Source of the DNA: an uncultured Gemmatimonadaceae bacterium
GTDB lineage: Bacteria > Gemmatimonadota > Gemmatimonadetes > Gemmatimonadales > Gemmatimonadaceae
Reading direction: 5' to 3'
Assembly: GCA_963822945.1 (NCBI GenBank)
Contig: CAWGJO010000021.1
Span: 256,001-320,000 of the forward strand
Length of the DNA: 64,000 nt
The position numbers were made by a program. This document shows, one piece after another, positions 33,001 through 36,000 of the stretch. Every line of letters starts with the position of its first letter. The stretch's first letter is position 1.

Positions 33001-36000
33001 CGCGGGGTGATAGCAATCGTCACATGCGCCATTCGTGGTTCCTACCGCTCGCCATCGTGCTGCTCGGCACGTCCGTGGCCTCGGCGGACGTCATCCCCAG
33101 TGGCCGGAAGAGCGTGCGCCTGTCCATTCGCGTGGATGCTCCTGGGGTTCCAGCCGGCAAAGTGCTGGTCCTCGCCCATACTTTTCGAGGCGCCGATCGC
33201 ATCGTCCCGGGCCAAGTTGCCAAAGTCGACTGGCATCCGATGGGCGGCGCGATGCAACTCGTCGCGGTCGACTCCGGCGCGGCCGACAAGCTCGCAGCGC
33301 TACAGAAGGACATGAATCGCGAGGCCGCCAACGCCATCACCGATGCAGGCGAAAAGTGCGGCAAGCCCTTCCAGGGCGTCCGCACGGTGCCGGACACCAT
33401 GACGGCGGACGAGATCCGTTGGGTCTACCGCGTGAGCTTCTCGCCACAGGGCTGCGCCGCGGACCTGGTGCGCACCGAGTACCTGGCCGAGGACGGCACC
33501 CTGGTGGAGGCGGAGGGGGGCGACGTCCCCGAGACACCGCCCAGCGTTTCGGCCGAGCCCAGCGCTCCCACACCAGCGCCTGCGCCGTCGCAGGCCGCAC
33601 CGCCGCCCGCCAAGAGCGGCTGCGGCGCGTGCACCGCCACGCGCGCGCCGCTTCCCCTCGGCGCTCCCCTGGCGTTGTTCTGCGCGGCTCTGGCCTGGGC
33701 GCTGCGTCGCCGCTGACTACGGTGCCTGCGGAAACGTCGCCACGGCAAGGCTGCCTTGGATGACGCCCGCTTGAAGCTCGTCGACGGGTTGTGCGCTGGC
33801 GGCCACGACGCCGCTCTGAAGGCTGGGCACCAATGCGAACAGCATCGTCGAGAAGGTCGCGTACTCCGGAAAGGGCTGCCAGGTCCCTTTCAGCTCCGGG
33901 CGCGTGGTGGCCGCCAGGATCTGCATGGGCCCGACGGCGCCGCTGTTCACCATCAACCAGGCTTTGGCCGGCAACGTCTCGCTGAACTTCCCGTCCGCCG
34001 TCGAAAATCCGAGAGTCAGCCCCGCGATGGCCACGCGTCGATCCGCGACCTGGTGGCTCTGGGATTCGAACGGCGGATAGCACGTCGCCGCCGGAGCATC
34101 GGGCCACGCGATTGTCACGCTGACGTCCGTGGGATCAACGGGCTGTCCCGACGCCGTGATGTACGCCAGGGTGGAGTCCTGCGCGTCCACCCGCTGGTCC
34201 AAGATCGATTGGCCTGTGAGACCAGCCATCCCCTCGCACGGGTCGCTCAGCGAGGCCAGCTGGTGCCCTCCGAACTTACCGCCGTCCGACGCCGCATCGT
34301 CGCTGCTTCCGCAGGCGATCAGAACCGGGAGCGCGAGGAGGGGCGCCAGGCGTTCGAGCATGAACCAGTGTACCAGTCTCAACTGAGAAAGCGGCATGCC
34401 CGTCTCACCAGGTCTATCCCCGCGTCCAGGGCCAGGACCTGCTCCTGATTGGATTGCCTCAGCGACAGCGAACGGTCCCGCGCCTCCCGGGCGCCCACCA
34501 CCACGAAGAACGGCACCGCCGCTTCGTGGGCGCGCGCGACACGACGCGCGAGGGAGTCCCTACCTGGGTCCAGGCGTGCCCGCACGGAACATCGCTGGAG
34601 CGCTTCCAGAACTTCTCCAGCGTAGCTCTGCTGCAGCTTCGGAAATCGCAGTCACCACGACCTGGTCCGGCGCGAGCCACGCGGGCAGCACGCCGCCGTG
34701 GTGCTCGAGTAGCACGCCCAGGAAGCGTTCCACGCTGCCGTACAGCGCCCGGTGCAGCATTGCCGGCCGGCGCCGCGCACCTCCCGAGTCCACGTAGTGG
34801 ATGTCGAAGCTCTCGGGCAGCACGAAGTCGAGCTGTATCGTCCCACACTGCCACGCCCGACCGAAGCAATCCCGGAGCGACAGCTCGAGCTTGGGCCCGT
34901 AGAAGGCTCCGGCTCCGGGCTGCTCCGTGTACTCGAGCCCGGCCCTCTCGGCGCTGGACGCCAACAGGGCCTCGGCCCGATCCCAGATCTCATCGGAGCC
35001 GGTGCGCTTCTCCGGCCGGAGTGACAGTGCGACCGCCACGTCGTGAAACCCGAACGCCGCGTAGAGATCGAACAGTCCCCTCAGAAAACGCACGACCTCG
35101 TCCTGGATCTGGTCCGGCGCGCAAAATACGTGGCCGTCGTCCTGGGTGAACTGCCGCAGGCGAAACAGGCCCTGCAGCGTGCCGCTGGGCTCGTCTCGAT
35201 GCACCACGCCGAGCTCGGCAAGCCGCACCGGCAAGTCGCGGAAGGATGCCGCCCGGCGTCGGAAGATCTCCACGTGCCCGGGGCAGCTCACCGGCTTGAG
35301 CGCCGCCTGCTCCGCCTGGAGCACGAACATGCCTTCGGGAAAGCTGTGCCAATGGCCGCTTCGCTCCCAAATCGCCTTCTTCAGGAGCTGCGGTGTGCGC
35401 ACTTCTTCGTAGCCCTGACGCTCCAGCTGCCGGCGCGCGGCCAGCTCCAGCTGTCGAAACAGGGACAAGCCCCGGGCGTGCCAAAACACCATCCCCGGTG
35501 CCTCTTCCTGAAAGTGAAAGAGATCGAGGCGCTTGCCTATTTGCCTGTGGTCGTTGTCGTCGAGCATGACTCGGTCCTGTCGTCTGAGGCCGGACCGACG
35601 GAGCTCCTGGTGGCCAAATGCCAAAAGCCCCGTCGGTTTCCCGGCGGGGCTGATTTCACGAAGCGTTTGGCCGTTACCGCGCGCGCACGAAACCGTTCCC
35701 GCCGAAGCAGGTCGTGGTCGTCGTGGTCGCGGTGGCGCGTTGCATTGCGTCGAATTCTTTGCGACATCTGCCCGCGTCTGTCAAGCCGAACCCCGCGATT
35801 TGCCCCGGGATCGTCCCCAAACTTGCGCGGGTGGCCCCCCCTCGGTACACCCGGGCGGTTGCGGAAACCGATGCAGCTCAAGGCCTTCGTCAAGCAGCGC
35901 GCGCCGCTGCTCGCCGTTGCCGCCGGCCTGGGGTTCGGGGTGCGCTGCGCCGCGGAGCGTCCACCGGCGCGATCCCTCGAAGGGCTGGCGACCATGCTCG

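Follow-up and report, generated by a model that had tools for sequence, protein, structure and literature searches.

A threonine-codon leader and putative ribosome-mediated attenuator in front of a short, editing-domain-less threonyl-tRNA synthetase gene

The locus lies in a 64,000-nt stretch of contig CAWGJO010000021.1 (GCA_963822945.1), hereafter the window, and all coordinates are positions within this stretch. On the minus strand, the window encodes a short thrS, the catalytic domain of which, without the N1/N2 editing domains, occupies 34628..35567 (TIGR00418, 387.3 bits versus a cut-off of 383.65; PF00587), while the anticodon-binding domain is found in a shifted frame at 34379..34627 (PF03129; second tblastn piece against the relative L186). 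The gene starts at the ATG at 35567, and its alignment to E. coli ThrRS begins at residue 242, indicating that the N1 (TGS) and N2 editing domains are absent. With the leader directly upstream, this agrees with the initial annotation, according to which thrS begins at the catalytic domain and lacks the N-terminal editing domains. The gene end at 34560 given there has to be corrected, as there is a frameshift near 34630 and the true stop is at 34379-34381. The closest relative found, L186 from a Polyangiaceae MAG, is intact (395 aa), the anticodon-binding domain is in frame in the relatives, and rtcB in the same window contains several frame changes. Because the relatives are intact and the nearby rtcB is broken as well, the shift probably reflects a sequencing error; programmed frameshifting at this site was considered and ruled out on the same two grounds.

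The window gene is the sole thrS in the analyzed assembly (genome 88% complete). The tetranucleotide distance to the other contigs increases from 0.005-0.014 to 0.015-0.022 at ~120 kb of the contig and stays high thereafter to the end, and the window protein clusters with Polyangiaceae in a quick tree. Judging from composition and grouping, the segment does not belong to this bin and is Myxococcota-like, most likely through a misjoin; the earlier suspicion that it represents contamination is backed, as far as foreign origin goes, by both the tetranucleotide shift and the Polyangiaceae grouping.

Upstream of thrS, on the same strand, lies a leader peptide ORF of 23 codons, seven of them for Thr (35674..35745), identified by translation and by homologous leaders at the relatives. 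It translates as originally quoted, with the seven Thr falling within eight codons, and its stop codon is separated from the thrS ATG at 35567 by 106 nt. In the 3.97-Mb genome, 6 of 35,954 short ORF-like units contain at least 7 Thr per 10 codons, and the window leader is among the six. A -35-like hexamer, TTGACA (35779..35784, minus strand), is located 33 nt ahead of the leader start codon; a consensus promoter scan called no site for the window leader. Across 63 leaders, a TTG[AC]CN or TTGCA hexamer is positioned exactly 30 nt upstream of the leader start in 42 cases, and at 29-33 nt in 54. A hexamer at a spacing of about 30 nt suggests a transcript that begins at the leader start codon, and we infer that the leader ORF is leaderless or nearly leaderless.

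Between the leader start and the thrS start, six RNA segments can be delineated, all on the minus strand. Segment 1 (35710..35733) is the Thr codon run, the putative sensor, which by folding is the partner of segment 2 in naked RNA. Segment 2 (35688..35706) has a GGCGGG core made of Gly-Gly codons and is predicted by folding to capture segment 3 on stalling. Segment 3 (35641..35660) is the 5' arm of a GC hairpin, with a CCCGCC core that is invariant among 33 aligned leaders, whereas segment 4 (35616..35636) is the 3' arm of this hairpin together with a short U tract; folding suggests that it is a weak terminator here, with segment 5 as its alternative partner. Segment 5 (35592..35609) is, from folding and alignment, a predicted anti-Shine-Dalgarno (anti-SD) element that would bind segment 4 in the ON state and the ribosome-binding site of thrS in the OFF state, and segment 6 (35565..35578) contains this ribosome-binding site (AGGA) and the start codon. 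The hairpin proper (35650-35627, minus strand) is followed by UUUUGGCAUUU, with merely 4 U in the tail, and was not called by a consensus terminator scan. The GC hairpin with a U tract of the initial annotation is present in the window copy, including the 4-U tail, but the U tract is not conserved: of the 61 leaders scored, mostly myxobacterial, 8 have at least 4 T among the 8 nt that follow the hairpin core (63 examined, 2 unscorable). Compared to the Rfam model Thr_leader (RF00506), the window reaches 18.2 bits and relatives 30.4 and 32.7 bits, all under the gathering threshold of 55, and no Rfam match to a T-box was obtained at E up to 10 across 34000-37000.

Next, the distribution of the short gene and its leader. 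The 80 related loci include 61 full-length thrS, 4 loci truncated at the 5' side and 15 short genes with flank. Fourteen of these 15 have 6-9 Thr per 10 codons, and the remaining one, L055, has 4, in a degenerate run. The presence of Thr leaders at short thrS, noted in the initial annotation, therefore holds, but among these 80 loci those without a leader are the 61 full-length genes and the 4 truncated ones; at full-length thrS, the 400 nt before the match are coding sequence, so that the leader count there is invalid as a control. The Vibrionaceae locus that had been placed outside the family (Veronia, L050) likewise has a thrS of the short type. The short type occurs in 75 of 301 Myxococcota genomes (one unpublished genome, G194, enters this denominator only), each of which has a second thrS match, and a leader with at least 5 Thr per 10 codons precedes it at all 51 of the 75 loci that were examined, a set rich in close relatives. 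A full-length thrS was found alongside the short type in all 10 genomes checked. By gene content, the short thrS is an auxiliary paralog.

Contrary to the earlier limitation to Myxococcota, the element is also found in Pseudomonadota: among the matches listed in DNA scans, it precedes short thrS in Paraburkholderia, Burkholderia, Bradyrhizobium and Inquilinus, as well as in other Alphaproteobacteria and in Steroidobacteraceae. The first DNA pattern scan yielded chance Thr runs for the most part of the 119 loci listed. A hairpin-only scan, which is blind to Thr, returned 21 short thrS among 120 loci listed, and 20 of these 21 have at least 4 Thr per 10 codons. A quick tree of 77 rows unites the short enzymes of myxobacteria and proteobacteria in a single group (SH-aLRT 94, or 91 with Veronia), which sits among full-length enzymes of proteobacteria; short enzymes from Actinobacteria branch elsewhere. 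When five myxobacterial genomes were searched with a covariance model built from 33 leaders, each had one strong copy, before the short thrS, with 85-173 bits versus at most 28 bits for the next hit, although these leaders or their close kin are part of the model itself. A relative of L112, with 90-95% identity over leader and gene, is present in contigs from four RNA runs; neither the expression level nor the start or end of the transcript can be read from them.

For the RNA alignment, 33 leaders were picked from the 63 at under 85% identity, with Veronia excluded, and the alignment resolves the six complementary segments. The element downstream of the hairpin is conserved and is complementary both to the hairpin 3' arm and to the SD. 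Compared to shuffled partners, duplexes are significant (p<=0.05) in 12 of the 33 leaders for 1:2, in 25 for 2:3, in 19 for 4:5 and in 10 for 5:6, the last being the helix of the ribosome-binding site, which in the window thrS is sequestered in the minimum-free-energy fold. The ON helices are 82% paired, with two-sided changes at 8 of 19 pairs (a number reached by 0 of 500 shuffles), and the OFF helices are 84% paired, with two-sided changes at 3 of 12 pairs (reached by 272 of 500 shuffles); the structures were derived from the same, mutually related sequences, which inflates these pair counts and makes the shuffle controls lenient. The 4:5 helix is 76-92% paired and has 6 pairs with two-sided changes, and the 3:4 core is 89% paired. 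In the flank of 5:6, pairs are swapped between U-A (14) and A-U (6), and alignment column 191 is a U that forms a wobble with segment 4 in 17 rows and pairs with an SD adenine in 16 rows.

Naked window RNA is computed to fold into 1:2, 3:4 and 5:6, and stalled RNA into 2:3 and 4:5. In equilibrium folding at full length, the gain in opening of the ribosome-binding site (stop minus mid-run) exceeds 1 kcal/mol in 33 of 63 leaders and is reversed in 10; with a stall at the second Thr codon, 3:4 remains dominant in 20 of the 25 leaders that could be scored (the other 8 of the 33, including the window, were skipped). As these results are weak or negative, equilibrium folding at full length was dropped as a proof of the switch, and the model depends on co-transcriptional trapping. 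Folding the 33 leaders in stages, in the order in which the RNA is made, gave a clear picture. Segment 3 is sequestered by the leader in 33/33 leaders when stalled, in 2/33 with the ribosome at the stop codon and in 6/33 when naked. Once segment 3 is sequestered, opening of the ribosome-binding site becomes easier by more than 1 kcal/mol in 26/33 and harder in 2, and opening is easier than with segment 4 removed in 28/33, with P(4:5 core) above 0.5 in just 15/33. In these computations, an antiterminator that overlaps the hairpin forms on stalling, and 4:5 provides the alternative helix that frees the SD. When the ribosome has reached the stop codon, the equilibrium in the window copy still favors a 17-bp 4:5 helix, and 3:4 folds as the tail emerges. 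Because 4:5 wins at equilibrium, the OFF state of this copy must rest on termination or kinetics, and the window copy probably leans on termination.

We propose, with a probability of roughly three in four, that this region is a leader-peptide attenuator that responds to the level of Thr-tRNA(Thr) and, by means of a ribosome-binding-site relay, regulates an auxiliary ThrRS without editing domains. Taken separately, attenuation in response to Thr-tRNA is very likely; that sequestration of the ribosome-binding site is a real part of the output is reasonably likely, and in myxobacteria it is likely to be the main output. The initial proposal of a ribosome-mediated Thr attenuator for an editing-less ThrRS is supported in this form, but a classical U-tract terminator (8/61 leaders) does not extend to the whole family; with the U tract so rare and both the anti-SD helix and its competitor conserved, the data point to attenuation at the level of translation or at both levels. 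Transcription would begin at the leader start codon. Under ample Thr-tRNA, the ribosome would reach the stop codon (or segment 1 would hold segment 2), the 3:4 hairpin would form, and segment 5 would mask the thrS ribosome-binding site, which is the OFF state; copies with a U tract, including that of the window, could additionally terminate at 3:4. When Thr-tRNA is scarce, the ribosome would stall on the Thr run, segment 2 would capture the nascent segment 3, and the freed segment 4 would take segment 5, leaving the ribosome-binding site exposed (ON). Removal of mischarged Ser-tRNA would fall to the full-length ThrRS, acting in trans.

It seems unlikely to us that the control is purely transcriptional, with 3:4 acting as an intrinsic terminator (with a U tract, U-less or Rho-assisted) and segments 5-6 being incidental. 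Such a terminator would fit the window copy, with its 4-U tail and the folding of 3:4 upon emergence of the tail when the ribosome has reached the stop codon, the U-rich tails in many of the proteobacterial copies among the matches listed, and the pairing of the 3:4 core (89%). However, fewer than 4 T follow the hairpin in 53 of the 61 mostly myxobacterial leaders, and segment 5 is conserved and complementary, with compensations, to segment 4 and to the SD.

The enzyme itself retains the class II core: the Zn ligands C334, H385 and H511 and residues R363, E365, Q381, D383, Y462 and R520 are invariant in the short enzymes. The latter contain a median of 3 Thr in ~400 residues (62 proteins), the Thr retained being the conserved T295, T380 and T482. 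The window enzyme has 7 Thr of 395 residues, versus 5.2% in 8 neighbors (binomial P 5e-4), and paired catalytic cores from 12 genomes have 69 Thr in the short type versus 159, the count being lower in 11 genomes and equal in one. In the pooled pairs, Asn, Lys and Thr are similarly depleted (0.39, 0.42 and 0.43), and the shared lowness of Asn and Lys is possibly a composition effect; in Veronia, Thr alone drops in the short versus the long enzyme (2 vs 17; Asn 12 vs 10; Lys 18 vs 22). An enzyme this poor in Thr could be made during Thr shortage.

The same RNA module was found before other genes. Covariance scores are 53-81 bits before isochorismatase-family genes, 79.5 before an MFS gene and 42.5 before a LysE-like gene; asd-like genes score 37-63 bits at four loci and 18 at a fifth, and scores of 33-54 bits were obtained before Brevundimonas genes that we take, from the N-terminus, to be aspartokinase-like. 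The genomes in which the module precedes isochorismatase-family and MFS genes have full-length thrS only. Among the 120 hairpin loci listed, about 19 precede asd-like genes (assigned by an N-terminal motif), and their leaders are rich in Thr/Lys, as expected of an amino-acid sensor; 7 precede methyltransferase and 4 GNAT genes, with leaders that have no Thr run (labels by N-terminal motif, with Pfam on one of each). No other target above 28 bits was detected in five myxobacterial genomes (150 candidates scored per genome), and none in the source assembly.

These additional targets bear on a possible role in resistance, in which the leader would sense inhibition of ThrRS (borrelidin/obafluorin type) and induce an insensitive enzyme, and elsewhere would drive hydrolases and exporters. 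We consider this improbable as the main function, even though any ThrRS inhibitor would be expected to stall the ribosome on the Thr run and the module is found before isochorismatase-family and MFS genes where thrS is only full-length. The myxobacterial short enzymes are marked by M332V, N333S and Y313F, and positions 313 and 332 correspond, in a residue mapping made in this analysis, to human Y392 and M411, which contact borrelidin according to the accessible portion of PMC4389257; S. coelicolor thrS2 is described as WblC-activated in an excerpt of PMC7157823. Conversely, the sites at which changes lead to borrelidin or obafluorin resistance in the passages available from PMC4389257 and PMC11252418 are retained in the mainly myxobacterial group (H309 in 64/64, G463 in 63/64 and L489 in 59/64 rows), i.e., substitutions of this kind (G463S/A, H309 or L489 changes) are not the pattern in these 64 rows. 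A second group of rows in this comparison contains duplicates and was set aside. Among 43 flanking proteins of 13 loci, there is no biosynthetic cluster, conserved neighbor or trans-editing gene, and the ~19 asd-like targets of the 120 hairpin loci listed are biosynthetic genes.

That Thr shortage induces an adaptive mistranslation, with the editing-less enzyme putting Ser on tRNA(Thr) so that ribosomes keep moving, appears rather doubtful. The absence of both an editing domain and a trans-editing gene in the 43 neighbors would be in line with it, as would the properties of ThrRS active sites, which admit Ser, and of the editing-poor Anabaena T2, which forms Ser-tRNA(Thr) (PMC4787780, portion available); besides, an extra ordinary enzyme would be of little help with Thr itself missing. 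However, all 10 genomes checked contain a full-length ThrRS capable of trans-editing, and the residue comparison gives no sequence sign of altered specificity. A broader view, in which a portable leaderless module relays the stall via four helices to the ribosome-binding site, with varied sensor codons and several gene types (thrS, asd, hydrolase, transporter, acetyltransferase and methyltransferase), and serves at thrS for emergency Ser mischarging through Thr starvation, is speculative when all of its parts are taken jointly. A chance Thr run or a decayed, functionless remnant, for which the degenerate run at L055 and the frameshifted window gene might be invoked, is hardly credible given the conservation across phyla, the single strong copy per genome before short thrS in 5/5 genomes and the genome-wide rate of 6/35,954.

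Attenuation through a run of cognate codons in a leader ORF is known for E. coli thrL and pheST/pheM, and S. coelicolor trpRS1 is an auxiliary synthetase controlled by attenuation. The attenuator proposed here shares with thrL and pheM the cognate codon run, an antiterminator formed from Gly codons after the run, and a GC hairpin, and pheST is a precedent for an attenuated synthetase. Unlike these systems, the target is an auxiliary short ThrRS, the spacing is leaderless, the U tract is mostly lost, and there is an extra, predicted anti-SD stage. The attenuator survey of Lopatovskaya, Seliverstov and Lyubetsky in 2010 reportedly has thrS among its predicted targets; some of the loci described here may be included in it.

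In S. lividans, thrL (SLIV_19412) is located before thrS (SLIV_19410) and is presented, in the part of PMC8079986 that was accessible, as leaderless and without a U tract, the mechanism being left unclear there. Both elements are Thr leaders before thrS, probably leaderless here too, with a hairpin that lacks a U tract in S. lividans and in most of the leaders scored here, and the S. lividans leader ends V-P-A-R (same portion of PMC8079986). It differs by having 2-3 Thr and another hairpin sequence (16.7 bits to the covariance model), and the Streptomyces short enzyme has a separate origin from the myxobacterial/proteobacterial group in the quick tree. Leaders of the S. lividans pattern occur at 29 of 32 Streptomyces short thrS loci; from this pattern we infer that the published leader probably stands before, and the published thrS probably is, the short paralog, while motif scans for the S. 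lividans thrL locus gave no match. A 2005 study, in the section available (PMC1262725), found no Thr element in Actinobacteria, and a description of the myxobacterial or proteobacterial element was not found in the full-text literature covered, which excludes subscription journals.

Mycobacterial Ms5788A is described as an attenuator with a polycysteine leaderless sORF (bioRxiv 10.1101/834739, available text). As far as that text goes, this system, ermC/cat attenuation and the thrS leader would share the principle that a ribosome stalled on a short ORF frees a sequestered SD; in Ms5788A it is the codon tract itself that is paired to the SD region, whereas the thrS leader would act through a relay, 2:3 and then 4:5, with the terminator-type hairpin kept. 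Regarding the enzyme, Anabaena T1 edits in trans for T2, which is editing-poor and Zur-controlled (PMC4787780, portion available). On the excerpts available, the short ThrRS resembles T2 (PMC4787780), ObaO (PMC11252418) and BorO (PMC4389257) as a second synthetase that would be used under stress, and T2 also in being editing-poor and rescued in trans; T2 and ObaO differ in retaining the N-terminal domains, and G463S of ObaO is absent from the short ThrRS. The attenuation principle is already known, and the parts that appear to vary here are the anti-SD relay, the leaderless spacing and the Thr-poor short enzyme.

Duplicated synthetases are very common and few of them are explained, as stated in the part of PMC4787780 available. 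Here, the sensor, the switch and the Thr-poor enzyme all point to Thr-tRNA shortage, which gives a testable logic for one duplicated-synthetase family, in hosts that are predatory, starvation-developing bacteria with good genetics. If the proposal is true, this would be an amino-acid-sensing translational attenuator beyond Actinobacteria. As an uncatalogued RNA family, it would point to the signal that induces several unstudied genes, and the short ThrRS would be a clean test case for whether an editing-less synthetase serves supply, drug tolerance or deliberate mistranslation.

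In the window, rtcB (26700-28283, + strand) shows several changes of frame along the gene, and this, together with the frameshifted thrS, indicates that the segment is indel-rich, probably as a result of long-read error. The contig itself (C21) is likely chimeric because, from about 120 kb to its end, the tetranucleotide signature is unlike that of the remainder of the genome bin (G000). The same window encodes, by domain match, a SpoIID-domain protein with two somatomedin-B repeats (41392-42507, + strand).

Among full-length threonyl-tRNA synthetases, Ala occupies position 463 (E. 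coli numbering) in 15 of the 76 rows of the residue alignment; Ala at this position of the E. coli enzyme is reported to confer resistance to obafluorin and borrelidin (PMC11252418). The short thrS of actinobacterial type, which lacks the N-terminal editing domains, was matched in 43 of 81 Streptomyces genomes, and a TTT-P leader precedes it in 29 of 32 loci (L279-L281, L422-L450). A separate hairpin/anti-SD/SD relay with compensating changes, judged by eye, is predicted at these actinobacterial loci.

At the Polyangiaceae locus L055 (3828-3908), the run is degenerate (TTKKT) and the helices are still intact; this might reflect either decay or a move towards Thr/Lys sensing. In Pseudomonas sp. 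H9 (L181) both the leader and the hairpin are retained, yet no clear gene follows them, and in three Myxococcaceae loci (L001, L005, L052) an OPT oligopeptide transporter gene lies upstream of the leader on the same strand.

The same hairpin also follows leaders without a Thr run, in three groups of loci (L287, L290, L314, L325, L344, L391; L285, L298, L315, L388; L286, L302, L328), behind which, among the matches listed, stand methyltransferase, GNAT and cyclase-fused genes. These leaders are Ile/Arg/Val-rich or His-containing, and end in V-R or A-R. Among the matches listed, Thr-run leaders precede isochorismatase-family hydrolase genes at L156, L198, L233, L308, L311, L343 and L361, the hosts being Pseudomonas, Andreprevotia and Paraburkholderia. 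In Burkholderia puraquae (L175/L297), an MFS gene is preceded by a Thr-run leader almost identical to that of L309, which precedes a short thrS; a related leader precedes a LysE-like gene (L396).

Finally, asd-like genes of Alphaproteobacteria lie behind the same attenuator at L299, L322, L358, L386 and at least about 15 further loci, with mixed Thr/Lys leaders among the matches listed. At these loci the element is a candidate for multivalent attenuation of aspartate-pathway genes.
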